Source: Microcoleus sp. Aus8_D1 (GTDB taxonomy: Bacteria > Cyanobacteriota > Cyanobacteriia > Cyanobacteriales > Microcoleaceae). From it: DNA of 28,185 nucleotides. Shown here in pieces: positions 53 through 22,453 of this stretch (position 1 is its first letter; every line of letters starts with the position of its first letter). Location of the stretch: positions 1 to 28,185 of the forward strand of contig NZ_JAUBUO010000016.1 of assembly GCF_036702645.1 (NCBI RefSeq), in the 5' to 3' direction. The notes under the pieces were generated by a model that saw only the letters and a program-made list of their open reading frames with translations, was not told where the DNA came from and made no database searches. Both the position numbers and the translations under genes were made by a program.

Positions 53-156
53 CGTCAAGTACCTCATCTTTCTGAGACTCGGCTATACACAGAAGTGATA
101 TAATCAAATCGCCCAATATCTAAATACTCTTCTATAAATTTTAGGTAAGCATTCCA

Positions 157-489
157 ATGGCACAACTAGCCGAGTTTTCCTTAGAAGATGGCACTACATT
201 TTTAGTAGAAATAGAAGAGCCAGAATCCCGAACTATCCAACGAGTCGCACTGCCTTCCGGACAGATGGTTGTCAAAGCTCAACAAAGTTTTGAACAAGCT
301 CTCGATCGAATTAAACCTGTAGCATCTACTATTCTTTCTAAACTCAAGGACTTAAATACTCCTGCTGATGAAGTAGAGGTCAAGTTTGGCATTAAACTGA
401 CGGCCGATGCTGGAGCAGTATTTACATCAATTGGAGGGGAAGTCAATTACGAGATTACCCTGAAATGGAAGCAGAATAAATCAAGTTAA
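157..489 (+). CDS. Small (110 aa) Trypco1-like (trypsin co-occurring domain) protein
   Basis: ORF ends 8 bp before a trypsin-like protease gene. The C-terminal segment DEVEVKFGIKLTADAGAVFTSIGGEVNYEITLKW resembles the conserved core of small trypsin-associated proteins (EVEFGxKxxAEAGAxIAKAGGEANFKVTLxW). Family assignment is from memory, not a search. Confidence 0.6.
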   Translation: MAQLAEFSLEDGTTFLVEIEEPESRTIQRVALPSGQMVVKAQQSFEQALDRIKPVASTILSKLKDLNTPADEVEVKFGIKLTADAGAVFTSIGGEVNYEITLKWKQNKSS

Positions 490-496
490 TCTCATC

Positions 497-1372
497 ATGA
501 ATAACAACTATTTTCAAGCTTTTAAAGGAGCGATCGCCCGCATATATCACGCTAATGGCGCAGTAGTTGGAGCGGGTTTTTTAGTATCCGATCGCTATCT
601 GATTACCTGTGCTCATGTTGTCGCAGCAGCTTTGAGTATTGCTCAGAACACTCAAGAACAGCCAACTGGTACGATCGAATTAGATTTTCCGCTAATTGCA
701 GCAGGGCAAAAAGTAAAGTCCAAGGTTGTATTCTGGCAGCCAGTTAATCCATCGCTCTCCGGAGAAGACATTGCCGGGTTAGAATTAGAGGGTAGTTTGC
801 CTAACATACAACCAGTATACTTGGTTGGTGCTGAAGATTATTGGCAGCATCCGATCAGAATTTTTGGATTTCCACAGGGGCACGATCTGGGAATATGGGC
901 AACTGCCACTCTGCGCGATCGCACTGCAAATAACTGGGTGCAAATAGATGCTGTAGCAGCTCAAAATCGGCCCGTTGAACAAGGGTTTAGCGGTGCGCCT
1001 GTATGGGATGAATCGCTGCAAGGAGTAGTCGGAATGGCGGTAGCGGCAGAAAAGCGACGAACAGATGTGACCGCTGCATTTATGATTCCTACTGCAATTT
1101 TACGAGGTGCATGGTTGGATTTAGAGCGATCGATCGCACACAATCCTTCGTCCATGAGGCAATCTCTTGATAGTTTGCCATCTTTTCGCCAAGTAAAGTT
1201 GAAGGCCTTAAAAAGTAACTACTCTATCTTGTGCGCTAAGTATGAAGCAGCTTACAATCAGCTTGGCTACACCTTAAATGACACTGATATTGTTAGCCTT
1301 AAACAGAAAATCAAAGGTCTCGAAACAGAAATCATGACATTAGAACGAGAAATTGATAGTTTATCTAACTGA
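497..1372 (+). CDS. Trypsin-like (S1/chymotrypsin fold) serine peptidase with C-terminal coiled-coil / EAD-like module
   Basis: LITCAHVV (catalytic His) and GFSGAPVW (catalytic Ser, GxSGxP) motifs. The C-terminal 60 aa are heptad-like (KQKIKGLETEIMTLEREIDSL) and homologous to the N-terminus of the next gene. Confidence 0.85.
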   Translation: MNNNYFQAFKGAIARIYHANGAVVGAGFLVSDRYLITCAHVVAAALSIAQNTQEQPTGTIELDFPLIAAGQKVKSKVVFWQPVNPSLSGEDIAGLELEGSLPNIQPVYLVGAEDYWQHPIRIFGFPQGHDLGIWATATLRDRTANNWVQIDAVAAQNRPVEQGFSGAPVWDESLQGVVGMAVAAEKRRTDVTAAFMIPTAILRGAWLDLERSIAHNPSSMRQSLDSLPSFRQVKLKALKSNYSILCAKYEAAYNQLGYTLNDTDIVSLKQKIKGLETEIMTLEREIDSLSN

Positions 1373-1382
1373 ATAGTTATCT

Positions 1383-2447
1383 ATGAATAATAAAAACAAC
1401 AATGAAAAGTTAATTGTTCGCAAAAAACAATATTTAGAGCTTCTATACAAACAATTTGATTCAGCTTATACACAATTGGAAACAACAGTAAATGAGTTTG
1501 ATAAACCTTCTATTCAAGCGAAAATCAAAGTTTTAGAGAACCAGATAGAACAAGTACACAAAGAAATTGACAACTTAGAATTACGCTCATCTCAAACAGG
1601 CAATGATTCGCATCCGCAATCTGGGAACTTCATCGAAAAATTGGGTAATGGCGTCCAGCTAGAAATGCTACATATTCCTCAAGGCAGCTTCTTAATGGGT
1701 TCGCCAGAAAATGAACTTGAGAGAAGCAACGATGAAGGCCCTCCGCACCCAGTGACTGTCCCAGCTTTCTTTATGGGCAAATATCCTGTCACCCAAGCTC
1801 AATGGAAAATTGTAGCAAATCTGCCTCAAGTTAACCGCGAACTCAATCCAGATCCTTCATGTTTCAAAGGTGTGAATCGCCCTGTTGAAACGGTTTCTTG
1901 GTATGATGCCGTCGAATTTTGTGCTCGCCTCTCCCTAGAAACTGGCAAGACTTACCGCTTACCCAGTGAAGCAGAATGGGAATACGCCTGTCGCGCTGGG
2001 ACAAACACGCCGTTTCACTTTGGGGAAACAATTACGACAGATTTAGCCAATTATAATGGTAATTATACTTATGCTGCTGGGTCTAAAGGAATTTACCGCG
2101 AACAAACAATGCCTGTGGGTAGTTTTGGGGTAGCCAATGCCTTTGGACTCTACGATATGCACGGAAACGTCTGGGAGTGGTGTGCAGACCCTTGGCATGA
2201 TAGTTATGACGGTGCGCCTGGTGATGGTAGGGTTTGGGATGAGACTTGTAATGATAATCGTTATCAAAACAGCATTGATTTATTAGTCCATACTGAGGCA
2301 AAAGATAACCGAACTCGGCTGCTGCGCGGTGGTTCGTGGCTCGTCTATCCGAGGAACTGCCGTTCGGCGATTCGCCTCAACCATGCGCCGGACATCGTCA
2401 ACTTCCTCAACGGTTTTCGGGTTGTGTGTGTCGCTGCGTGGACTTAA
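1383..2447 (+). CDS. FGE-sulfatase (SUMF1/formylglycine-generating-enzyme fold, FGS) domain protein with N-terminal coiled-coil module
   Basis: Motifs [58 protein letters not shown] and RLLRGGSW are diagnostic of the FGE-sulfatase fold. The N-terminal 60 aa are coiled-coil. Confidence 0.9.
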
Positions 2448-2504
2448 TAGCTCTTTACACTTTTACCCTCTTGCTCTTTACACTTCTTAATTTTTCACTT
2501 GTTG

Positions 2505-2532
2505 GTCGCCCCTGGCGACTCGATTTTTTTTT
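2505..2532 (+). terminator. Rho-independent terminator after the FGS gene
   Basis: GTCGCC-cctg-GGCGAC stem-loop followed by tcgaTTTTTTTTT. Confidence 0.6.
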
Positions 2533-2615
2533 GCCTTTGTCAACCATCTATGCCTAACAGAATTTTGGGATATTTTTTATATTTGCCAGGTCAAATATTG
2601 AGATAATTTCAGAAT

Positions 2616-2808
2616 TTGTAGGGGCAGGTTCACCAACAATTCATGGCACAAACAAATAATATTGTCAACCCGCCCCACCCAACAGACAATCAAAATGTAC
2701 CAGAAATTTATTGGTAAGATGTTAATCTGAATTTATCGTGTGGTGGGGGCGGGTTTTTGTAAATTATTTGTGGGTTTTAGAGATGGTTGGTGAACCCGCC
2801 CCTACAGG
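2616..2808. repeat. REP/BIME-like nested palindromic element, copy 1 (about 193 bp)
   Basis: Outer arms TGTAGGGGCAGGTTCACC and GGTGAACCCGCCCCTACAGG; inner arms AACCCGCCCCACCC and GGTGGGGGCGGGTT. GTAG head. Preceded by a 55-bp spacer that is itself repeated. Confidence 0.85.
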
Positions 2809-2863
2809 ATTATCGGATATTTTTTTGTATTTGCCAGGTCAAATATTGAGATAATTTCAGAAT

Positions 2864-3056
2864 TTGTAGGGGCGGGTTCACCAACAATTCATGGCAAAAA
2901 TGAATGATGTTGTAAACCCGCCCCACCCAACAGACAATCAAAATGTACCAAAAATTTATTGGGTAAGATGTTGATGTGAATTTATCGTGTGGTGGGGGCG
3001 GGTTTGTGAAATTGTTGGTCTGTTTTGTAGATGGTTGGTGAACCCACCCCTACAGG
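2864..3056. repeat. REP/BIME-like nested palindromic element, copy 2 (tandem with copy 1, includes the 55-bp spacer)
   Basis: Near-identical to copy 1; the preceding spacer gtatttgccaggtcaaatattgagataatttcagaattt (inside the 55-bp inter-copy spacer 2809-2863) is duplicated at 2563-2615. Confidence 0.85.
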
Positions 3057-3652: not shown

Positions 3653-3662
3653 TAACCCAAAT

Positions 3663-3853
3663 CTGTAGGGGCGGGTTCACCAATAACTCATGGCAAAAAT
3701 GAATGATATTGTAAACCCGCCCCACCCAACGAACAATTAAAATGTACGATAAATTTATTGGTGATATGTTGATGTGAATTTATCGTGGGGTGGGGGCGGG
3801 TTTGTGAGATTGTTGGTCTGTTTTGTAGATGGTTGGTGAACCCGCCCCTACAG
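3663..3853. repeat. REP/BIME-like nested palindromic element, copy 3
   Basis: Same outer and inner arms as copies 1 and 2. Confidence 0.85.
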
Positions 3854-3896
3854 TATTTGGGATGTTTTTTTGTTTAAAATATAGATGGAATTTTAA

Positions 3897-4090
3897 GGTG
3901 GGTGGGGGCGGGTTCACCCACCATCTATCGGGAAAATGAATGATATTGTAAACCCGCCCCCACCCAACGAACAATTAAAATGTACGATTGATTTATTGGT
4001 AAGATGTTGATGTGAATTTATCGTGGGGTGGGGGCGGGTTTGTGAGATTGTTTGTGGGTTTCAGAGATGTCGGCGAACCCGCCCCTACAG
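3897..4090. repeat. REP/BIME-like nested palindromic element, copy 4 (variant left arm GGTGGGTGGGGGCGGGTTCACCC)
   Basis: Shares the inner arms and the right outer arm CGAACCCGCCCCTACAGG. Confidence 0.8.
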
Positions 4091-4148
4091 GATTTTGGGA
4101 TGTTTGTTTGGAAATTCATTGGTTAAATATTTATGTAATTTAATTGTC

Positions 4149-4339
4149 TGTAGGGGCGGGTTCACCAACAATTTATGGCACAAACAAATAATATTGTAAA
4201 CCCGCCCCCACCCAACAGACAATTAAAATGTACGATGAATTTATTGGTAAGATGTTGATGTAAATTTATCGTGTGGTGGGGGCGGGTTTGTGAGATTGTT
4301 TGTGGGTTTCAGAGATGTCGGCGAACCCGCCCCTACAGG
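4149..4339. repeat. REP/BIME-like nested palindromic element, copy 5
   Basis: CTGTAGGGGCGGGTTCACCAAC ... GGCGAACCCGCCCCTACAGG. Confidence 0.85.
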
Positions 4340-4392
4340 ATTTGGGGATGTTTTTTTTATTTTATTAGTTCAATAATATCAATAATCTGCGG

Positions 4393-8413: not shown

Positions 8414-10516
8414 TTAAGCCGCAACTAAACCGCTGTGTTTCAACAAAGCTTTAGTGCTCGGTTCGCGTCCCCGGAAAGTTTTAAACACTTCCATCGGGTG
8501 CAAACTGCCACCCAATCCTAACACTGTATCTCGGAAGCGTTTACCTGTAGAGCCGATCGCACTTTCATCTTCCAAACCAGCCTCCTCAAACGCCGCAAAA
8601 GCATCAGCACTCAGCACTTCCGCCCATTTATAGCTGTAATAGCCCGCCGCGTAACCGCCCGCAAAAATGTGTCCGAAAGCGCACAAAAATGCGTCTCCTT
8701 CCAGAGGAGGCAAAACAGTCGTAGTTTTAGCAATGCGCTTGCGGACATCCGCCACAGTTTCGCTGCCGCCCGATCGATAGCGGTGGTGCAATTCGATGTC
8801 AACACTGCTAAGATGTACTTGCCTGAGCATGGCACTGCCGCTCATGTAGTGGCGCGCTGCTAGCAGCTTTTGGTAATAGTGTTCCGGCAAATTTTCCCCG
8901 GTTTGGTAATGCTTTGCCATCCCGAACAAAGTCGCCCTATCGTAACACCAATTTTCCATAAATTGACTGGGCAATTCCACCGCATCCCACTCAACATTAT
9001 TGATGCCAGAAGCCCCCGGATAGTCTACCGTTGTCAGCATATGCTGCAAACCGTGACCGAATTCGTGAAACAAAGTTTCTACTTCCAAGAAAGTCATTAA
9101 ACTCGGTTTTCCGTCAACCGGAGGACTTTGGTTGCACACCAAATACGCCACCGGTAAACGCGTTGTTGTCTTGCCCGCTTCCACAAATTTAGCGCGCACC
9201 ACGCACTCGTTCATCCAAGCACCGCCGCGCTTTTCCTCGGGGCGGCTGTAGGGGTCTAAATAGAAATTGGCGAGCGTATTTCCCGCTTCATCATCTATTC
9301 TGAAATAGCGCACATCTTTGTGCCACACAGGAGCTTGACCGTCCGCCGCAGTTACTGTCACGCCGAACAGCCTTTTTACTAATCCAAACAACCCCTCCAA
9401 TACCTGCGGCAAAGCAAAATAAGGGCGCAATTCTTCGGCACTAAAAGCAAACTTTTTTTCCCGCTGCCGTTCCGACCAAAAACCAATATCCCAGTGCTTC
9501 AAATCCGCAGCTTCCGGCGCGCATGAGGTGGCAGCAAAAGCTTTCAATTCTTCTAAATCTTTGACAGCAGCGCTGTAACTAGCTAAGCGCAATTCTTCTA
9601 ACAAAGCTTCCACTGCTGTAACGTTAGGAGCCATTTTGCTCGCCAAGCTCAATTCGGCATAACTGCTAAACCCGAGCAAAGCTCCTTTTTCCTGGCGCAG
9701 TGCTAAAATGCGATCGGTCAAAGGCCAGTTATTCAATTCTCCGCTACTGGCTCTGCTGATAAAAGCTTTGTACAACTTTTCGCGCAAATCGCGGCGAGTG
9801 CTGTGCTGCATGAAAGGGCCGTAACTCGGGAAGTCTAAAGTAATCCGCCAAGGGCCATTTTCCGCATCGGCATTTTCGGCGCCGGCACTGCGAGCCGCTT
9901 GAGCTGCTAAACTCAACAAACTTGGCGGTAAACCGTCAATTTCGTCTTTGTTTGTGAGGGTGATACTGAAAGCTTTGGTAGCGTCGAGGACGTGATTGGA
10001 AAATTGGGTAGTAATTTCGGCCATTTCTAATTGAATGGCATTGAAACGCTCTTTTTGCTCGCCTTCTAAACCGACGCCGGAAAGTTGAGCATCTCGGAGG
10101 GAAGCTTCGACAATTCGCTGTTGAGCTGACTCTAAACTGTCCCAATTTTCGATCGCCCGCAGCGCTTTAAAAGCTTCGTAAAGCGGTTTGCTTTGACTGA
10201 GCTTGCTCCAAAATTTTACTACTTCCGGCTGCACTGTTTCGTGAGCCGATCGCAATTCCGGGCTATTTTTCACCCCCATCAAATGTCCGACAATGCTCCA
10301 AGTCCAATTTAAACGCTCTCCGAGCCGCTGCAATGGTTCAACTAAGCCGCTCCAAGTCGGCTCGACAGAGGCTTCTAAGGCAGCTAGCTCGGCTTCTAGT
10401 TCGCTCAGAAGTTGGGTAACGGCGGGGACTACGTGTTCTGGTGCGATCGCATCAAACGGTGGCAATCCTTTGCCAATTAATAACGGGTTATCAGTAACAG
10501 TTACGGTTGCGGTCAT
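8414..10516 (-). CDS. prlC: Oligopeptidase A / M3-family zinc metallopeptidase
   Basis: 700 aa; HEFGHGLQHML zinc-binding HExxH motif; N-terminus NPLLIGKGLPPFDAIAPEHVVPAV typical of OpdA/Dcp. Confidence 0.9.
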   Translation of the reverse strand: MTATVTVTDNPLLIGKGLPPFDAIAPEHVVPAVTQLLSELEAELAALEASVEPTWSGLVEPLQRLGERLNWTWSIVGHLMGVKNSPELRSAHETVQPEVVKFWSKLSQSKPLYEAFKALRAIENWDSLESAQQRIVEASLRDAQLSGVGLEGEQKERFNAIQLEMAEITTQFSNHVLDATKAFSITLTNKDEIDGLPPSLLSLAAQAARSAGAENADAENGPWRITLDFPSYGPFMQHSTRRDLREKLYKAFISRASSGELNNWPLTDRILALRQEKGALLGFSSYAELSLASKMAPNVTAVEALLEELRLASYSAAVKDLEELKAFAATSCAPEAADLKHWDIGFWSERQREKKFAFSAEELRPYFALPQVLEGLFGLVKRLFGVTVTAADGQAPVWHKDVRYFRIDDEAGNTLANFYLDPYSRPEEKRGGAWMNECVVRAKFVEAGKTTTRLPVAYLVCNQSPPVDGKPSLMTFLEVETLFHEFGHGLQHMLTTVDYPGASGINNVEWDAVELPSQFMENWCYDRATLFGMAKHYQTGENLPEHYYQKLLAARHYMSGSAMLRQVHLSSVDIELHHRYRSGGSETVADVRKRIAKTTTVLPPLEGDAFLCAFGHIFAGGYAAGYYSYKWAEVLSADAFAAFEEAGLEDESAIGSTGKRFRDTVLGLGGSLHPMEVFKTFRGREPSTKALLKHSGLVAA

Positions 10517-10607
10517 TTAATTTTCTTGTAACAGGTTGAAAACAGGTGAACTAGACAGATTACCTTTTCAATTTGTAACACAGTTGTCCAAAAAGTCGGA
10601 CTCCAGC

Positions 10608-10710
10608 CGGGAGAGGGAGAGAATGGGAGAAGGGAAGAGGGGGAGAAGGGGAGAAGGGGAGAGGGGGAGAGGGGGAGAGGGGGAGAGGGGGAGAGGGAGA
10701 GAAGGAGAAA
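10608..10710 (+). repeat. Roughly 100-bp polypurine tract with a (GGGGGAGA)n / (GGGGAGAA)n core; G4- or triplex-prone
   Basis: gggagagggagagaatgggagaagggaagagggggagaaggggagaaggggagagggggagagggggagagggggagagggggagagggagagaaggagaaaa; all purine on the + strand. Confidence 0.85.
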
Positions 10711-10730
10711 ATCTTCCTTCTGACTGATGA

Positions 10731-10837
10731 CCAACTGCCAACTATCAACTGCCAACTGCCAACTGCCAACTATCAACTGCCAACTGCCAACTATCAACTG
10801 CCAACTGCCAACTGTCAACTGTCAACTGTCAACTATC
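10731..10837. repeat. STRR-like heptamer array (CAACTGC/CAACTAT/CAACTGT)n, about 15 units
   Basis: Direct reading. The reverse complement of the same unit recurs at 23791-23825. Confidence 0.85.
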
Positions 10838-11704
10838 TTGCGTGTGCTGCAACTCCTTGACAACTGAGATTAAGCGCTTGAGATGAGGTTTAACAACTTC
10901 TTGTTGCTCGTGTTCCAAACGGTGGATTTGAGCTTGGACTACAGACAAATCCGGAGTCGATTGCTGCGCGGGAGCTTGCAGTTGGCTTTGCAGATTGGCC
11001 ATGACTTTCTGGATTTCAAAAAATCGAGTATTTACTACTTCCCAGTCGTCTCGGGTAATCGCAGTTTCTGCTAAGCCTTTCGTCGCGCTTTGCAGTTTTT
11101 CTATCGCCTGTTCCACAGCTTCGAGATTTGCCGGTTGGCCAACCGATAAATCTCGAAGCTGTGCGCTCACCTGCTGGCGAACATCGAGCACAGCAGACGC
11201 CACAATTTCTTGCAAAGAAGCTACCGACTCTCCCAAACTCAGCAATTGCCGCTCGATGTCGAGGGACTCCTCAAAACCTTCAGCCCTAGGAAGTGCAGCC
11301 ATTTGCTGGCGCAGCGCTGCAATATCAGCAGACAACTGCTTGCGCAATTTAACAATTACCGTCACCGCCGTTTTTTCGACTTTATTTACAGACTTTTGCA
11401 CTTGGGCTAGTTCCGAATTTTGATGAACCCGCACTTGCTGCTCGAACCGATATCGGTTAGCCACATTTAGCGACAAAGCCAAAGTTAGCGGAGCCACTCC
11501 GTAAAAAGCTTGACCCGACACAGCCACCGCCAGGGAACCCACACCAGAGGCCGCCAGAGAGGCGTACTCTGCCACTTCCAGCCAGTGTCTTTGAGGAAAA
11601 CTTTGCCTCAAGTGGTTTCTAGCAGAGGGGTTTGGCTTCCGCACGGCTCTTTGGGTCATAATATTTTCTCGTTGTTGGTAAGGTGGCGCGACTGGGTGGA
11701 GCAT
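10829..11704 (-). CDS. Hypothetical coiled-coil protein with an N-terminal hydrophobic segment
   Basis: Long Q/L/A/E-rich heptad-like sequence; WLEVAEYASLAASGVGSLAVAVSGQAFYGVAPLTLALSL is a TM-like region. Real start probably the internal Met (MTQRAV). Confidence 0.55.
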   Translation of the reverse strand: MLHPVAPPYQQRENIMTQRAVRKPNPSARNHLRQSFPQRHWLEVAEYASLAASGVGSLAVAVSGQAFYGVAPLTLALSLNVANRYRFEQQVRVHQNSELAQVQKSVNKVEKTAVTVIVKLRKQLSADIAALRQQMAALPRAEGFEESLDIERQLLSLGESVASLQEIVASAVLDVRQQVSAQLRDLSVGQPANLEAVEQAIEKLQSATKGLAETAITRDDWEVVNTRFFEIQKVMANLQSQLQAPAQQSTPDLSVVQAQIHRLEHEQQEVVKPHLKRLISVVKELQHTQDS

Positions 11705-11931: not shown

Positions 11932-11966
11932 GATTTGAGATTTGAGATTTGAGATTTGAGATTTAA
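11932..11966. repeat. Heptamer repeat (GATTTGA)4
   Basis: gatttgagatttgagatttgagatttgagattt. Confidence 0.8.
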
Positions 11967-12088
11967 AATGCCACCTAGTGAGGGCGATCGGAGTTTTGAG
12001 CCACTCGGTAGTTGCGTTTTGGTTCGTGCATTGGTATAATTTACTTTTTCTAAATTTCCCGGATTTAATTTACAGCAAGACTTAACAA

Positions 12089-12223
12089 ATGAAATCAGAA
12101 AAACCCGAAAATGGCGCTCGGCTCAAGTCTATTTTCAGTATCACAATCTTTATTATTCTCGTCCTAGCAGTAGGCTTTTTAAGCGTGAATTTTATTTCAG
12201 CTCTGTATGCCAAATTTTCTTAA
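12089..12223 (+). CDS. Candidate small (44 aa) single-pass membrane protein
   Basis: MKSEKPENGARLKSIFSITIFIILVLAVGFLSVNFISALYAKFS: polar N-terminus followed by a 23-residue hydrophobic helix. Below the ORF-track threshold; no clear RBS. Confidence 0.25.
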   Translation: MKSEKPENGARLKSIFSITIFIILVLAVGFLSVNFISALYAKFS

Positions 12224-12341
12224 AATTAGTCCTGGACGCATGGAATTCATAAACTGGTTTTTTTACAAAAATACTTCGTCGCAGCCAGCAGAATCGGTAA
12301 AAAACCCGGTTTCTTTGGTATTTAGGCGTCCAGGACTAATT
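12224..12341. repeat. 16-bp perfect inverted-repeat pair (AATTAGTCCTGGACGC / GCGTCCAGGACTAATT) separated by about 86 bp
   Basis: Arms at 12224-12239 and 12326-12341. The right arm overlaps the stop codon of the STAND gene. Confidence 0.7.
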
Positions 12342-13730
12342 TGGTGATAACCCTTTGATATATTGCTTCAGTACAGGTGGCAAAGTGTAAAGGCTTTCCT
12401 GTTTTTCGATCGAGCAGCGTCGCGAGAGAGATTGCAATGCGTTTAGCAAATTTGATGATGATATTTGTCCGTTTTGTAGCAATTTGGCGACGTTGACTGG
12501 CTGGTTTTCTGTCGCCAACAATGACATGACTTGTTTTTCGAGTTCGGAAGTGCGATCGTACTGCTCATGTAAAACATCTTTTAAATCTTCGGGTAACAAT
12601 ATGGTATCATCTATTAATAACTCATTCGCGCCGATGCCCAACTCTTGAATCAGAGTCGCCACGCTTTTTAACCATAACGGGTTGCCTTGGTAGCGGTGAA
12701 TGAGTGCTTCGCAGTTATCGATTTCTGCTAATCCTTTATCTCTGAGGATTTCCCGTGCGGCCGCAGTGTCTAAACCAGTGAGTTGTAAAGTCCGAATGGG
12801 AGTATTTTCGCTGGTGAGTTGAGGAACTTCTTTCGGCGGTTCCCAACCGATTAGCAGAAAGCAACTTTGATGGGATAATGTCTCTATTTGTTTGAATAAG
12901 GAGCGATATTCTTCGTATTCGGGTTTATACTTTCCTGCCAATTCGCCGCTACAGAAAAGGTTGTGAACGTCATCTAAGACTATTAAACAGCGATGGTTTT
13001 GTAAATATTTAATCAGCGGTAAGCGTTTCTGGTTGTTTGAGGATGAATCTTGTTTTTCTGACTGGGAAAAAAGCTGTATTAGGTTAGATTTAAATTTATC
13101 GATGGTGGGGAATTCGTCTAGGGTGCACCAAACTGCGTATTCAAACTCGTCTTTGATTTGTTTTACGAGTTGTACTGCTAGGGATGTTTTGCCGATGCCG
13201 AGTCGGCCGGTGAGGGTGATAAGGCGGCAGTTTTGTTGTAGAATCCAGGTTGTGAGGGTTTGGAGTTGAGGAGTGCGATCGAAGAAGTCGCCCAACTCCG
13301 GCATTTCGCTTAAATCTTGATGTAAAGTTTTAGTTTGTTTTGGGTTAGATGTTTCGTCATTATCTGGATGTGACGTTGATATATCTGGGGGGTGTCTTCC
13401 TTCTCCACAGGTATTAAAATTACCACTGATGTGTTGTTCTATGACGTTTTGTGTAAAGCTTGAAACATTAGAGACTTGAAACCTTTGAATTGCCGAGCGA
13501 AAATTCTTTTTATTGACATTTTCCCCCAACTCCTCTGAAAGTAATTGCCATAATTCCGAAGCCGCATTCCTAACACGACTTTCAGAACAGTCAAAGTCTT
13601 TGGCTACGTGCTTGTATGTCTCGTGTTGTACAGTTCCTTTCAGTACCGCCTCTTGTAAATCATCAAGGTGTTGACCCGTTTTCTCGAAGACTATGCGATC
13701 GGCGAAGTTTAACATTTCTTTGAGATTCAT
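12336..13730 (-). CDS. Short STAND (NB-ARC-like) NTPase with the cyanobacterial N-terminal HTH-like domain and no C-terminal repeat array
   Basis: Walker A LTGRLGIGKTSLAVQLV; Walker B-like CLIVLDDVHN. The N-terminus (LQEAVLKG...YKHVAKDF..SESRVRNAASELWQLLSEELGENVNKKNFRSAIQRF) matches the conserved N-domain of cyanobacterial NB-ARC/WD40 proteins. Confidence 0.85.
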   Translation of the reverse strand: MNLKEMLNFADRIVFEKTGQHLDDLQEAVLKGTVQHETYKHVAKDFDCSESRVRNAASELWQLLSEELGENVNKKNFRSAIQRFQVSNVSSFTQNVIEQHISGNFNTCGEGRHPPDISTSHPDNDETSNPKQTKTLHQDLSEMPELGDFFDRTPQLQTLTTWILQQNCRLITLTGRLGIGKTSLAVQLVKQIKDEFEYAVWCTLDEFPTIDKFKSNLIQLFSQSEKQDSSSNNQKRLPLIKYLQNHRCLIVLDDVHNLFCSGELAGKYKPEYEEYRSLFKQIETLSHQSCFLLIGWEPPKEVPQLTSENTPIRTLQLTGLDTAAAREILRDKGLAEIDNCEALIHRYQGNPLWLKSVATLIQELGIGANELLIDDTILLPEDLKDVLHEQYDRTSELEKQVMSLLATENQPVNVAKLLQNGQISSSNLLNALQSLSRRCSIEKQESLYTLPPVLKQYIKGLSPN

Positions 13731-14269: not shown

Positions 14270-15586
14270 ATGAATATAGACTTAAACTGGCTTCCTCATC
14301 AAGCTCCTACAATCGACTTTAAGGCAACTCTGCATCCATCAAAAGAAATTGCATCACGTTGGTTTAACTTTCCACCTTACCATGACGAGCCGAAACTTTG
14401 GCATCTCTCTGCTCAAGTCAAACCCAGTATAGACATTAAAGATGAAAACTTACAGGAGGTCGCTGGAGGTTCGTCACTGGACTTTGATAGAGCTCTCGCA
14501 AAACTGGCGGGGGAAACCGTTGAGCGTTATGCGATCTCTAAGAATGTCAATCTGAACTTGAATGATTTACAATCATGGCAGGAATTGGTACAGCAAAATT
14601 TGTGTGCGCTAGATCCGTTCCAACTTGTGATTGGTGATGAACATCGACATAAATCGCGTCGTAACGATAAAATTTCATGGATTCAAGGATTTGATTTAAA
14701 CTTACAAGTTCCTGCACTTATTCCTGCACAGCTAGTCTTTGTTCCGCATATTTTTAGAGATAATGAAGCTGTTTGGAGATCCGCTGTATCAACAGGTGCG
14801 GCAGCACACTCTACACTTGAGGGAGCTTTATATGCTGGTCTTTGTGAAGTCGTAGAGAGAGACGCTTTTCAAATTGCTTGGCTTAGACAGTTAAGATTAA
14901 CTAGGATAAATATAACTACAGGTGATACTTACTTCTACAATTCTATCAATAAACTAATTGATGCTGGTAAAAGATATCATCTTCACTGTGAGCTATATCA
15001 GCTTCCTTGTTCTATTCCCTTATCTGTTTGCATGGCAGTTATTTGGGATAATACAGGTATTGGACCTCGGTGTTCTCTGGGTGCAAAATGTTCTCAATCA
15101 AGCTTAACAGCCTGTGTCGGAGCACTTGAGGAAGCTTACCAAATGCGTTCTTGGTTGCGATATACACTCAACAAGTCGGGAGCATTTTCAAAGAATAAGC
15201 CACTTGATACATTGCTCGATAGAGCGAGACATTGGTTAACACATGAAGCTTCAGAAGTTCTTAAAAGTTGGACTCAACAATTCAACAGTTCTATTTCTTT
15301 ATCTGAAAGACCCTCTGAACTTTCTCTTGGTGAATTAGTTGAGTCAGTTAAACAAGATGGAGGTACTGCATATTTCGTTGACTTAACAGCGAAATTACCT
15401 GAATGTCTGCATCAATTGGGTTGGCATATTACAAAGGTAATCATTCCAGAGTACCAACCGCTAAACTTAACGGAGTCAATGGAAGACTTCGCCTTGCTAA
15501 GAATTGATAATGCTTCTCAGCGTTTGAATGCTGAAGCTCTTATTCCAGCGGGAGAGAAATTTAGATATCCTCATCCTTTTTTGTGA
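14270..15586 (+). CDS. YcaO-domain protein (standalone, 438 aa)
   Basis: AGETVERYAIS (ExxER ATP-binding motif) and STGAAAHSTLEGALYAGLCEVVERDAF (YcaO signature). Confidence 0.9.
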   Translation: MNIDLNWLPHQAPTIDFKATLHPSKEIASRWFNFPPYHDEPKLWHLSAQVKPSIDIKDENLQEVAGGSSLDFDRALAKLAGETVERYAISKNVNLNLNDLQSWQELVQQNLCALDPFQLVIGDEHRHKSRRNDKISWIQGFDLNLQVPALIPAQLVFVPHIFRDNEAVWRSAVSTGAAAHSTLEGALYAGLCEVVERDAFQIAWLRQLRLTRINITTGDTYFYNSINKLIDAGKRYHLHCELYQLPCSIPLSVCMAVIWDNTGIGPRCSLGAKCSQSSLTACVGALEEAYQMRSWLRYTLNKSGAFSKNKPLDTLLDRARHWLTHEASEVLKSWTQQFNSSISLSERPSELSLGELVESVKQDGGTAYFVDLTAKLPECLHQLGWHITKVIIPEYQPLNLTESMEDFALLRIDNASQRLNAEALIPAGEKFRYPHPFL

Positions 15587-15595
15587 GCAATCAAT

Positions 15596-16372
15596 ATGAA
15601 TATTACAGATCGACAAAGCAAAGACAATGATCCATTGGGGCAGGGAATTCAACTAGCTCAGGCATTTGAAGAAGCTACTTGGATTCACGATGCTTCTTCT
15701 CTCCAAGCAAGTTATATTCCCCATTCCTGGACATCGATAAATAGGAAGGAATATCGCCGTTTACCAAGAGTTGATTTGAGCGGACTACGTTCTCCAAGTC
15801 AAAATAGCGAATTAAGCAAGGTATTTGAACATCGGTCATCCAAGCGACAATTTTTACCGGAACCTATTGCGTTAGAAACGCTGAGTACGATGCTAGCAAC
15901 GGTTGCCAGCACTCGAAATGAAGAACCTCCAAGCCGAGTTTATCCTTCTGCTGGTCTAAGGTGGCCAATTGAGTGGTATCTTGCCGCAATCAATGTAGCT
16001 TCACTGGAAGCTGGAGTTTATCATTATGAATCATTTGATCATCAACTGGAAACACTAAAAATAGGCAATCCTTGGAACGAGCTTGCGGAAGCGCTTTCAA
16101 TGCAAACCATTGATCGTCCATCAGCTTTACTAATCTTAACTTCTGTATTTCATAGAAGTTGGATTAAGTATGGCATTCGTGGAAGTCGATATGCTTATCT
16201 AGAAGCTGGTGCAGCAGCCATGTCCTTAAATATTGTTGCAGTAGAGGCTAACATTGGTGTAGTTTGGCTAGGTGGCTTTGTTGACTCCTCTATTTCAAAG
16301 ATTCTTGATATTAATTGGAAAATGGAGTTAGAAACTCCGGTTCTATGTCTCGCGCTTGGACATCCTATTTAG
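15596..16372 (+). CDS. SagB-type dehydrogenase (nitroreductase-fold, TOMM azoline oxidase-like)
   Basis: SSKRQFL, YPSAGLRWPIEWYL (PSAGGLYP-like) and RYAYLEAGAAAMSLNIVAVEANIGVVWLGGF motifs. Starts 9 bp after ycaO. Confidence 0.85.
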   Translation: MNITDRQSKDNDPLGQGIQLAQAFEEATWIHDASSLQASYIPHSWTSINRKEYRRLPRVDLSGLRSPSQNSELSKVFEHRSSKRQFLPEPIALETLSTMLATVASTRNEEPPSRVYPSAGLRWPIEWYLAAINVASLEAGVYHYESFDHQLETLKIGNPWNELAEALSMQTIDRPSALLILTSVFHRSWIKYGIRGSRYAYLEAGAAAMSLNIVAVEANIGVVWLGGFVDSSISKILDINWKMELETPVLCLALGHPI

Positions 16373-16985: not shown

Positions 16986-17465
16986 TCAAAATTCCTCTTC
17001 TATAATCTTAAAAGTTCCCATACCCAGTTCCAGAGTAGGTGATGTTAAATTTTGTAGCCATTCCTGCCGAGTCACGCCACTACAATCTATATTATTAAAC
17101 ACAATTTCCTGTTCGTCGATTGTAATTGATATCCCTTGATCGTAGCCATTAGTAGCAATTTGCTGCTGTCGTCGTAAATCATAAATCACTGACCAAGGTA
17201 GGTCTTGCCTTTCTAAATCCAGTTTAATCTGCTTACCATGTAGGTTTCTGATGGTCAAGAACTCTTTGATAGCCTGACTGCATTCAACACATTGAAAGAC
17301 TCCATAGCGACTGGCAATTTTAGCGATATCTTCTCTAATTTCATCTAAACTACTGGGATCTAAACTCAAAGTGTAAAGTTTACCTCCTATATTTATGGAC
17401 AAGTATATCTCAAAATTATTGCCATTGAGTGCTCGACCGATCGCATAGGGTGCGCGCTCTTGCAA
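16986..17465 (-). CDS. Hypothetical protein (159 aa, TTG start); possible toxin-type C-terminal cassette
   Basis: ORF-track ORF. The reading frame stays open upstream through the repeat R, encoding RAIALATIIVLFGICCEGISRSLGKAL before the annotated start. Confidence 0.5.
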   Translation of the reverse strand: MQERAPYAIGRALNGNNFEIYLSINIGGKLYTLSLDPSSLDEIREDIAKIASRYGVFQCVECSQAIKEFLTIRNLHGKQIKLDLERQDLPWSVIYDLRRQQQIATNGYDQGISITIDEQEIVFNNIDCSGVTRQEWLQNLTSPTLELGMGTFKIIEEEF

Positions 17466-20627: not shown

Positions 20628-21836
20628 TCAAACAAATTTGTGCGTAAATTCACTGGTAAAATCCACTCTCCCTTTCCGCAACATTGCAGGATCTAATCTT
20701 TCAATGGTGTTACAAGTTAGTAAAACTACGAGTTTCTGCTGAAATTGAATGCCTTGTTCGTCCATGACGCTTTGATACAAAGTTCCATCCAGCAAACTCA
20801 AAATATGTTCAGTTTTGTTACTACGTTGAGCCGCTGCGGTCGATCGATCTTGAGCCAAATTATCAGCCTCGTTAATAATGATGCAAATCCGCTCCAAATA
20901 ACTCGGCGGCACAAAATTTTCCACAGCATCATGATCCAAGATAAAAATCACATAACCCAGCGGCACTAAAATCTCCTTTGCTACCGCTTGAGTCCAAGCA
21001 GTTTTACCAGTCCCCGGTTCACCGCTAACCAAAACAGCCAACTGATTTTGATCCAGAATTGCCTGCTGAACAGTATCAGTAAAACTTTGAACTTCCGCAG
21101 AAAAAGTCCGAATTGGGAACTGACTGTGAACCTGTCCGACGCGGCTTTTGTACCCGCTGAGAATCACCGCTAAATTGTAAGTAGCCTTGCTAACCAACGG
21201 CGCAATATCTTGGCAAATCAGAGTGTAGCAGCGTCTTCCCCTGTCGTAGCTGTCAATTTGCAGCCAACAGCCGCATCGCGCCCAATAAGCATAAACAGTA
21301 CCCAAAACCTCCAAACGTTCCCAGCTAACAAATCGTTCCGGCGGATAAGAAAAATGCCGTTCCATAAAAAACTGGGTAATCGCATCCGGTTTTCCCAGCA
21401 AATCCAGAACTTTGAAAACAGTAATTTCTTGGAGTTTGTTGAGAACGTAATCAATGGGAATGCTAGCGCGGCTGACCAATTGCACCACGGGCGTTTCCGT
21501 GACTAAAACATCTTTGTAACGGTAATCCGGGTAAACAGGCTGCGGAGTAATGTAATCCCAAAACTCGTCTATTTCGTAGCGAGTATTTTCCGAGAATACA
21601 TTTAAGATATTTGCCCACCAGGTATATTGATGTCGTCCCATGGCATCGGCAATGTCGCTGGCTGCATCTAAACTTTTTTGAGCTAGTTCTCTGGGGTCGC
21701 TAGACGCTAAGTGCAGCAGGTATTCCCAATCAAATTGACGGTATAGAGGTCGCCAGCCTGAGCCGAGCAGCCCTCGATTTTGAGGATTGTTTTGATTAAA
21801 ATTGTTGTCGCGATCGCCCATGTTGTCCGCACTCAT
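20628..21836 (-). CDS. AAA+ ATPase with an uncharacterised ~250-aa N-terminal region
   Basis: Walker A GEPGTGKTAWTQAVAKE, Walker B IIINEAD, sensor-2 LRKGRVD in the C-terminal half; N-terminal half matches no family I recognise. Confidence 0.8.
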   Translation of the reverse strand: MSADNMGDRDNNFNQNNPQNRGLLGSGWRPLYRQFDWEYLLHLASSDPRELAQKSLDAASDIADAMGRHQYTWWANILNVFSENTRYEIDEFWDYITPQPVYPDYRYKDVLVTETPVVQLVSRASIPIDYVLNKLQEITVFKVLDLLGKPDAITQFFMERHFSYPPERFVSWERLEVLGTVYAYWARCGCWLQIDSYDRGRRCYTLICQDIAPLVSKATYNLAVILSGYKSRVGQVHSQFPIRTFSAEVQSFTDTVQQAILDQNQLAVLVSGEPGTGKTAWTQAVAKEILVPLGYVIFILDHDAVENFVPPSYLERICIIINEADNLAQDRSTAAAQRSNKTEHILSLLDGTLYQSVMDEQGIQFQQKLVVLLTCNTIERLDPAMLRKGRVDFTSEFTHKFV

Positions 21837-21907
21837 TTTCGGTAACTCCTAGTTACTCTTATTTTCAAAGATTGGCCGCAGATTTGCTACAACTAAACTG
21901 GATTTTT

Positions 21908-22453
21908 TCAACAGAGTTTGAGATTATTTGGCGGCACCATATCTACCAACCAAACTCTGTTATCCGAGCAGTAAAATGTATGGCCGTCCTGTTGCATTGC
22001 TGCGGCATCTACAGCCAAGACTGCCGGGATGCCGTGTCTGGCACCTACTTTACGCGCTGTCTGAATGTCCGCCGACAAATGAACGTGATGCCGCGACATT
22101 TTCCTAATTCCTTGACTCAGAATAGACTCGACGGCAGTCCTACCTGTTCCGTGATATAAAATATCTGGGGGAACAGCAGGTTCTAACTGCAAGTCAACCT
22201 CTACACTGTGTCCTTGGTTGGCACGAATGAGAGTGCCCGTTTCGTCGAAGGAAAAGCGCTGTTTGTCGTTTTGCGCGACTACTTGCTTGAGTTCTGCAAG
22301 CTGAAGGGGGAAGTTATTTTTTTGGCAGGCATCGAGGAGTTCGCTAACAGGAACCCAGCCTCCCGGCGCGAGTTGAATGCCGATGCGCGAGGGCGCGTGG
22401 CGCAGGTGTTTGCTGAGATATCTGCTGATTTTTCTTAATCGGGTATCATTCAT
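21908..22453 (-). CDS. kptA: RNA 2'-phosphotransferase Tpt1/KptA family protein
   Basis: LSKHLRHAP...GGWVPVSELL; YHGTGRTAVESILSQGIRKMSRHHVHLS (HGT...RxHVHLS) diagnostic of Tpt1/KptA. Confidence 0.9.
   Translation of the reverse strand: MNDTRLRKISRYLSKHLRHAPSRIGIQLAPGGWVPVSELLDACQKNNFPLQLAELKQVVAQNDKQRFSFDETGTLIRANQGHSVEVDLQLEPAVPPDILYHGTGRTAVESILSQGIRKMSRHHVHLSADIQTARKVGARHGIPAVLAVDAAAMQQDGHTFYCSDNRVWLVDMVPPNNLKLC

Follow-up and report, generated by a model that had tools for sequence, protein, structure and literature searches.

EAD9 adaptor domains on a trypsin-like protease and an FGS-domain protein in a reduced, deletion-derived cassette of Microcoleus

At the start of a 28,185-nucleotide stretch of DNA from Microcoleus sp. 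Aus8_D1 (assembly GCF_036702645.1, contig NZ_JAUBUO010000016.1, positions 1 to 28,185 of the forward strand; the whole stretch is referred to here as the window), three consecutive genes encode a small Trypco1 protein, also called Pepco, a trypsin-like serine protease and a protein with a C-type-lectin-like FGS (FGE-sulfatase) domain. The protease at its C-terminus and the FGS protein at its N-terminus share a helical module of about 60 residues, namely Effector-associated domain 9 (EAD9, Pfam PF19962), an adaptor described earlier. A known kind of defence system takes a new, reduced form at this locus, and one or more deletions in this Microcoleus lineage fused an iSTAND-type EAD9 straight onto the FGS domain. 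Taken together, we regard as somewhat probable a reading in which the two EAD9 hairpins are paralogous, the cassette was reduced by deletion, and EAD9 tethers the protease to an FGS sensor so that Trypco1 may be cleaved. Both the domain and the idea that it couples proteins were published in 2020, and the finding of a shared module as such adds nothing new. The value of the locus lies rather in its context, namely a naturally minimised three-gene version that has no iSTAND, ATPase and vWA core, its conservation in several Microcoleus lineages, and the placement of the adaptor directly on a probable sensor with the mutation signature of a diversity-generating retroelement (DGR).

The EAD9 adaptor and the layout of the cassette

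Ten effector-associated domains (EADs) were defined by Kaur, Burroughs, Iyer and Aravind (eLife 2020, PMC7159879) as small, non-enzymatic and mostly helical domains, with a copy on a core protein and others on effector or signalling enzymes, frequently products of the neighboring gene. They were proposed to couple proteins homotypically, by analogy with Death-fold adaptors, and EAD9 was grouped with EAD2 and EAD6 among the recruiters of “signalling components” such as peptidases to the core (PMC7159879). The module in the window has these traits in that it is small, all-alpha and non-enzymatic, lies at the end of a protein and occurs on two proteins from adjacent genes. Against a PF19962 gathering score of 25, the protease copy reaches 53.8 bits and the FGS copy 28.5 bits, and a six-frame hmmsearch of the window recovers exactly these two copies, the next match having an E-value of 0.8.

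A preliminary description of this DNA had proposed that the end of the protease and the beginning of the FGS protein share a homologous module of about 55 residues, and direct comparison bears this out. When the whole protease is compared with the whole FGS protein by BLASTP, the EAD9 region is the sole significant match, with 23 of 57 residues identical, 36 of 57 positive, a single one-residue gap and E = 9e-9. The homology extends over residues 229–291 of the protease and residues 1–66 of the FGS protein; the peptides originally pointed out, 52 and 53 residues long, lie within these limits at nt 1208–1363 (aa 238–289) and nt 1419–1577 (aa 13–65), respectively. The gapless alignment described for them holds for the last 50 residues, 19 of which are identical, whereas the full pattern requires one single-residue indel. 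Their interpretation as an effector-associated or adaptor domain is supported by the assignment of both copies to PF19962, homotypic coupling itself being a prediction. The module had also been placed on two different catalytic domains, which is correct for the protease, whereas the FGS domain probably has a binding role.

In an AlphaFold2 (AF2) model of the protease built with 46 homologues, the first EAD9 copy comprises a helix at residues 230–258, a turn at 259–261 and a second helix at 262–290 (pLDDT 81–94), and it hangs on a disordered tether (residues 216–227, pLDDT <50). From this helix-turn-helix layout, EAD9 is modelled as an antiparallel helical hairpin and not as a single long coiled coil. 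Two confident hairpins are likewise seen in the AF2 model of P0034, a natural protein that combines Trypsin with two EAD9 copies. Invariant polar residues (Q, T, and N) are located in and around the hairpin turn, off the heptad core, as judged from a six-sequence alignment and the AF2 model, and the Q is nearly invariant over about 100 members of the EAD9 family. A search of PDB sequences with the EAD9 profile returned generic coiled-coil noise only (best E = 0.004) and no solved structure with EAD9. Physical binding between the two EAD9 copies in this cassette is a prediction.

The module turns up again together with effector, signalling and NTPase domains of many kinds, as shown by the profile search of other proteins that the preliminary description had called for. 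A profile made from the two window copies and one match, used to search 1.84 billion representative proteins exhaustively at E <= 1e-3, retrieved 102 proteins, and 99 of the 101 that were scanned are Pfam EAD9. Their partners include TIR (12 proteins), iSTAND (10), EAD7 (9), Trypsin (3), CHAT (2), and, in one protein each, a kinase, SIR2, PNP, FGE-sulfatase, and an nSTAND1 NTPase. The last of these, P0122, is a metagenomic representative of 798 aa whose nSTAND1 NTPase is followed by six tandem C-terminal EAD9 copies (200.8 bits in total), and proteins tagged with EAD9 might use it as a multivalent scaffold for docking. A word-indexed search with a 62-residue EAD9 profile, for which E-values were scaled to 5.8 billion sequences, gave one match only. 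Filamentous cyanobacteria widely have the Trypsin–EAD9 combination: among the best 120 protease homologues, PF19962 is present in almost every one, and JGI gives some of them the name [quoted passage not shown]. The occurrence of EAD9 on many other catalytic and NTPase domains, together with this existing annotation, thus supports the adaptor interpretation and identifies the domain as one already known.

All three genes of the cassette lie on the plus strand. The Trypco1 gene (157..489, 110 aa; Pfam PF19493, 99.5 bits; NCBIfam CU044_2847 family, 81.7 bits) comes first and ends 7 nt before the protease gene (497–1372, 291 aa). The trypsin-like serine protease domain (aa 1–215, 497..1141) matches Pfam Trypsin_2 over residues 25–180 with 50.7 bits and adopts in the AF2 model a beta-rich fold, mostly with pLDDT >80. 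Its triad of H40, D91, and S165, the last within GFSG, is invariant across 46 homologues. The locus therefore presents the hallmark of Pepco/Trypco1–protease modules, a Trypco1 gene directly 5′ of a trypsin-like protease with an intact triad. The flexible tether (aa 216–228, 1142..1180) leads to the first EAD9 copy (aa 229–291, 1181..1369; Pfam match over residues 229–289). After 10 nt there follows, on the same strand, the EAD9-FGS gene (1383–2447, 354 aa), which opens with the second copy (aa 1–66, 1383..1580; Pfam match over residues 15–65), of the type found on iSTAND proteins. Beyond it are the deletion junction with a short linker (aa 68–78, 1584..1616), located by blastn against the related locus L001, and the FGS domain (aa 94–348, 1662..2426; Pfam PF03781, 183.7 bits). 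The C-terminus of the FGS domain harbors the probable variable region (VR) of a DGR target (2315..2440), recognized by adenine-site mismatches against the L001 template region (TR). A GC-rich hairpin followed by a T run (2504..2530, plus strand; seven pairs, five of them GC) starts 57 nt past the stop codon, resembles a terminator and is likely that of the three-gene operon; it falls within DNA that is collinear, up to window position 2532, with the region 3′ of the L001 VR. For the cassette proteins, NCBI has entries with 100% identity, which come from Microcoleus sp. Aus8_D2 and from further unclassified Microcoleus. PADLOC reported nothing specific at the locus, the protease domain alone matching generic protease-containing models.

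Origin by deletion and the diversified FGS domain

The canonical operon found in relatives reads Trypco1 / Trypsin-EAD9 / EAD9-iSTAND / AAA (MoxR-like) / vWA (CoxE-like), accompanied by at least one FGS protein, and is present at loci L001 (an Oscillatoriales metagenome-assembled genome), L006, L014 (Kovacikia), and L017 and L018 (Rivularia); at L001 and at L017–L018, a neighboring bAvd gene and reverse transcriptase (RT) make up a DGR. By blastn, window positions 114–1583 correspond to L001 4806–6282 and window positions 1617–2532 to L001 10246–11182, each at about 82% identity, and the intervening 3.96 kb or so of L001 (6283–10245) are replaced in the window by 33 nt, in frame. The stretch that is missing relative to L001 encodes the iSTAND domain, the AAA ATPase, the vWA protein and the N-terminal half of the FGS protein (residues up to ~365). 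At the protein level, residues 1–67 of the window's FGS protein share 54% identity with the N-terminal end of the EAD9-iSTAND protein of L001, and residues 62–354 share 73% with the C-terminal domain of the L001 FGS protein (649 aa). Given that iSTAND, AAA and vWA are absent while the DNA is collinear with L001, the locus is a derivative of the iSTAND MoxR–vWA ternary system and not a member of it.

The same three-gene cassette, with intact open reading frames (ORFs), recurs at loci L002/L005, L007–L009, and L010–L013. Its hosts are Microcoleus sp. herbarium19 and several metagenome lineages, and an identical FGS protein is deposited in NCBI under herbarium13. In these compact relatives, the FGS protein is 384–399 aa long and retains short remnants of the deleted region together with a beta-extension of ~44 residues. 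As only seven EAD9+FGS clusters occur among the best 120 FGS homologues, the EAD9-FGS architecture is rare and limited to the Microcoleus compact-cassette clade. A third type of context for the protease-EAD9 module is found in Nostoc sp. C052 (L015, 8912–13416), where Trypsin-EAD9 is partnered by a protein of 551 aa whose only recognized domain is an N-terminal EAD9; next come a NACHT/nSTAND1-TPR protein of 930 aa and a radical SAM enzyme.

The FGS C-terminus bears an adenine-specific DGR mutation signature. The reference for this comparison is the complete DGR of L001 (9151–13137), which comprises the 649-aa FGS target, bAvd (11217–11552), the RT (11933–12988) and, 3′ of the RT, the TR (13009–13137); this TR differs from its own VR by 14 mismatches, 14 of 14 at TR adenines. 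Measured against the same TR, heterologous here but from a related genome, the window VR differs at 15 of 30 adenine sites and 8 of 99 others (Fisher p = 1.7e-6). The window and L002 VRs differ from each other at 19 of 28 adenine sites and 7 of 98 other sites, and those of L002 and L007 at 14 of 28 and 9 of 98 (p = 7e-6). Since L002 and L007 both have the fusion architecture, their adenine-site differences indicate that adenine mutagenesis went on after the fusion. As to function, the FGS protein scores far below every NCBIfam enzyme cut-off (152 against 500 for PvdO, 59 against 360 for EgtB), and of the two copper-binding cysteines of FGE, it probably keeps only one. The FGS domain is probably a sensor or binding domain, not an enzyme.

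Proposed EAD9 tethering and its alternatives

How might such a cassette work? In the ancestral operon, EAD9 would have been carried by the protease C-terminus and the iSTAND-protein N-terminus, and the iSTAND protein would have worked with the MoxR-like AAA ATPase, the vWA protein and the DGR-diversified FGS protein. In the reduced cassette, the two EAD9 hairpins would pair with each other, and the pairing would keep the protease attached to the hypervariable FGS sensor. EAD9-FGS would then act as a diversified receptor, and ligand binding by its FGS domain would license the protease without an NTPase. The protease would in turn cleave the Trypco1/Pepco protein encoded 5′ of it, and cleaved Trypco1 would form a membrane pore, so that the membrane is permeabilized and the infected cell killed. 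A bolder version, which we put forward tentatively and would sooner doubt than believe, is that Trypco1, Trypsin-EAD9 and EAD9-FGS form an autonomous, NTPase-free immune module composed of a DGR-hypermutated lectin-fold receptor, a two-hairpin EAD9 bundle, a protease and a pore-former. If true, the pathway would be reduced to its minimum, “diversifying receptor, adaptor, protease, executioner”, having arisen when a ternary system lost its ATPase switch by deletion, and the cassette would be the simplest natural system for the hypothesis of homotypic EAD coupling. A self-sufficient cassette would offer a small, tractable test of homotypic EAD recruitment, and of whether the ATPase switch is dispensable for signaling from sensor to protease.

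Several observations weigh against tethering within the cassette. First, one EAD copy always sits on a core component according to Kaur et al. (PMC7159879), as is the case in the relatives L001, L006, L014, and L017. In the window, EAD9 is on no core component, and the 28 kb contain no iSTAND, VMAP, MoxR-like AAA or vWA. Second, EAD9 copies from the same operon are no closer to each other than those from different operons, a result that neither backs nor refutes specific pairing. Third, the EAD9 on the FGS protein evolves fast, with a ratio of nonsynonymous to synonymous substitution rates (dN/dS) of 0.48–1.0, a noisy estimate from 66 codons, and in the canonical operons used as a control the iSTAND-linked EAD9 is also fast (0.44, against 0.18 for the protease-linked EAD9). 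Fourth, the window FGS protein has lost the ~44-residue beta-extension that is present in the compact relatives.

Finally, the window contains no TR, second VR copy or RT, and its collinearity with L001 stops just before the L001 Avd gene; any DGR would therefore act in trans. The TR predicted for the clade, with its 3-nt deletion, had no exact match in the metagenome contigs, and a looser TR motif retrieved from them 23 unrelated FGS-type TRs, none of which fits the window VR. Continuing diversification in this particular strain is thus unproven. The 23 adenine-rich TR-like sequences (L019–L041), diverse otherwise, have in common a 26-nt motif, GGTTC[GT]TGGAACAACAATCCGAGGAA, apparently a core conserved among FGS-type DGR templates.

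The main rival to tethering within the cassette holds that the pair is not self-sufficient, and that both EAD9 proteins instead attach to a core (iSTAND, nSTAND, or another NTPase) that has an EAD9 of its own and whose gene lies at another place in the genome. Multivalent EAD9 scaffolds do exist, as exemplified by the six tandem copies of P0122, and the 551-aa EAD9 partner of Trypsin-EAD9 in Nostoc sp. C052 adjoins a NACHT/TPR protein. Against such remote docking stand the retention of a tight three-gene unit in several lineages, the loss of the cassette's own cis-encoded core through the very deletion that created it, and the window's other 25 kb, in which there is no EAD9 or iSTAND, the proteins checked for EAD9 including the NB-ARC STAND protein at 12336–13730. 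On this evidence, we consider docking on a distant core rather unlikely.

Alternatively, the locus may be the decaying leftover of a collapsed defence operon, in which the EAD9 of the FGS protein survives as a relic and no longer has a role. The origin of the cassette by deletion, the loss of the neighboring Avd-TR-RT, a further internal deletion in the window lineage and a dN/dS of up to 1.0 for the FGS-linked EAD9 in one comparison would all fit decay. The selection data make this reading less likely, and we hold it to be quite improbable. Between the window and three compact relatives, dN/dS is 0.17–0.32 for Trypco1, 0.26–0.31 for the protease domain, 0.26–0.34 for the protease-linked EAD9 and 0.16–0.24 for the FGS core, so that values of 0.16–0.35 prevail everywhere but in the FGS-linked EAD9 and the VR, the last 45 FGS codons standing at about 1.6. 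At least four diverged lineages (dS 0.3–0.6) have each of the three ORFs intact, adenine-site diversification of the VR persisted after the fusion, and the FGS-linked EAD9 still exceeds the Pfam threshold and retains the residues invariant in the family. The N-terminal type of EAD9 evolves faster everywhere it was compared. The cassette as a whole is under purifying selection, and the constraint on the FGS-linked EAD9 is its weakest point.

Could the shared module have arisen more simply, through recent duplication or gene conversion between the neighboring genes? The two copies are on the same strand and 10 nt apart, as tandem duplication would leave them, yet they have no similarity at the DNA level, where the longest exact match is 11 nt. 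Across seven operons, EAD9 copies cluster by type and not by operon, each type being separately conserved across genera. Mean identity is 70% among protease-linked copies, 50% among N-terminal copies (on iSTAND or FGS) and 38% between the two types. The FGS-linked copies are 47% identical to iSTAND-linked ones and 38% to protease-linked ones. Protease-linked and N-terminal copies are 38.6% identical within the same operon and 37.6% between different operons, and in this small sample the generalization of Kaur et al. that adjacent EAD copies are mutually closest fails. With neither DNA similarity nor same-operon closeness, recent tandem duplication is rejected and in our estimate very improbable, and the two copies are old paralogues. 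The preliminary description had also raised module shuffling between neighboring genes; as duplication this does not hold, whereas shuffling of another kind did occur, the FGS protein having inherited its EAD9 from the iSTAND protein by deletion.

There remains the chance likeness of two unrelated coiled coils, a notion that might be encouraged by the heptad pattern of both helical segments and by the generic coiled coils that they weakly match in Pfam and PDB, and which we reject as having a negligible probability, in view of the shuffling controls, the scores of both copies above the curated PF19962 threshold and the conserved polar residues of the turn. In the controls, one segment was shuffled fully, within heptad registers or within hydrophobic/polar classes, in 5,000 trials each. 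The observed Smith–Waterman score of 96 was attained in 0 of 5,000 trials of any kind, the maxima being 51 (full), 65 (heptad-register-preserving), and 71 (hydrophobic-pattern-preserving). Since the observed score lies above all pattern-preserving shuffles, the similarity exceeds coiled-coil composition, and the outcome that the preliminary description had named in advance as fatal to its proposal, a likeness confined to generic heptad composition, was not observed.

Genomic neighborhood and comparison with known systems

The cassette is bordered by repeats on both sides. At positions 1–53, the window begins inside a tandem array of a perfectly repeated heptanucleotide, (GCCCTAT) x 7.6, some 100 nt 5′ of the Trypco1 gene; collinearity with related cassettes starts only at nt 93–114, so that the array bounds the conserved unit on the left. 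Directly 3′ of the cassette, where relatives have other genes, lie two arrays of a 248-bp repeat (2557–3056 and 3662–4362; 2.0 and 2.9 copies with 84–90% matches), rich in GGGGCGGGTT-type palindromic motifs, which flank on both sides a gene for a 186-aa IS200-like Y1 transposase (PF01797, 3092–3652). Together they look like a REP/RAYT-type arrangement.

Further along, the minus strand encodes a 464-aa NB-ARC/NACHT-like STAND NTPase (12336–13730) with an unassigned N-terminal region of ~150 residues and no long C-terminal sensor. Its gene lies 5′ of one for a 291-aa coiled-coil protein with a weak DUF6200 match (10829–11704, minus strand) and of a 101-aa ORF with no family match (10513–10818, minus strand). 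At 14270–16372 on the plus strand, a YcaO cyclodehydratase (438 aa) is directly followed by a nitroreductase-family protein (258 aa), a pairing typical of the azoline-forming maturation of ribosomally synthesized and post-translationally modified peptides. A 159-aa protein with a Tox-PL-2 papain-fold toxin domain (96 bits) is encoded at 16986–17465 (minus strand). At 20628–22453, also on the minus strand, a Tpt1/KptA RNA 2′-phosphotransferase (181 aa) adjoins a 402-aa AAA ATPase with an unassigned N-terminal region of ~240 residues, and the two may be another conflict-system pair.

Among known systems, the cassette most directly recalls the EAD9 iSTAND / MoxR–vWA ternary systems (Kaur et al., PMC7159879), with which it has in common the domain family, Trypco1 together with Trypsin-EAD9, the 5′ operon order, an orthologous FGS domain and, relative to L001, collinear DNA. 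It differs from them in that the window has no iSTAND domain, MoxR-like AAA ATPase or vWA, and neither EAD9 copy is on a core. Whereas the published role of EAD9 is recruitment to such a core, in the window it would form a direct link between the protease and the variable lectin-fold protein.

A second parallel is provided by lectin-fold DGR targets, which have been argued to be antigen sensors tied to trypsin via EAD8 (Doré et al., bioRxiv 10.1101/2023.09.22.558884). There, too, a lectin-fold/FGE domain carries the VR, an N-terminal EAD is matched by one on a nearby trypsin-like protease, and the proposed order runs from sensor to adaptor to protease. In the EAD8 sensors, however, an nSTAND1 NTPase is placed between the EAD and the lectin-fold domain, whereas the Microcoleus cassette has no NTPase, uses EAD9 and has no adjacent DGR.

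Third, the small Trypco1 gene directly 5′ of a trypsin-like protease gene is shared with Pepco–protease modules. Experiments on a Streptomyces Avs4 system showed Pepco (Trypco1/2) to be a beta-barrel oligomer, and SsPepco becomes toxic, consistent with pore formation, when cleaved at a specific C-terminal site by the Avs4-associated trypsin-like protease; Pepco-linked proteases have also been found fused to FGE-type sensors (bioRxiv 10.1101/2025.11.14.688446). In the characterized case, protease and sensor belong to one Avs4 STAND polypeptide, whereas in the window they are separate proteins, each with an EAD9, and Trypco1 would be the presumed substrate.

Finally, the Death-fold adaptors (CARD, DD, and PYD) of the animal apoptosome and inflammasome are, like EAD9, small, helical and non-enzymatic modules that are carried by a protease as well as by a sensor or scaffold and thought to associate homotypically, a comparison drawn by Kaur et al. 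The Death fold comprises six helices and EAD9 a predicted two-helix hairpin, and the comparison is offered as an analogy.

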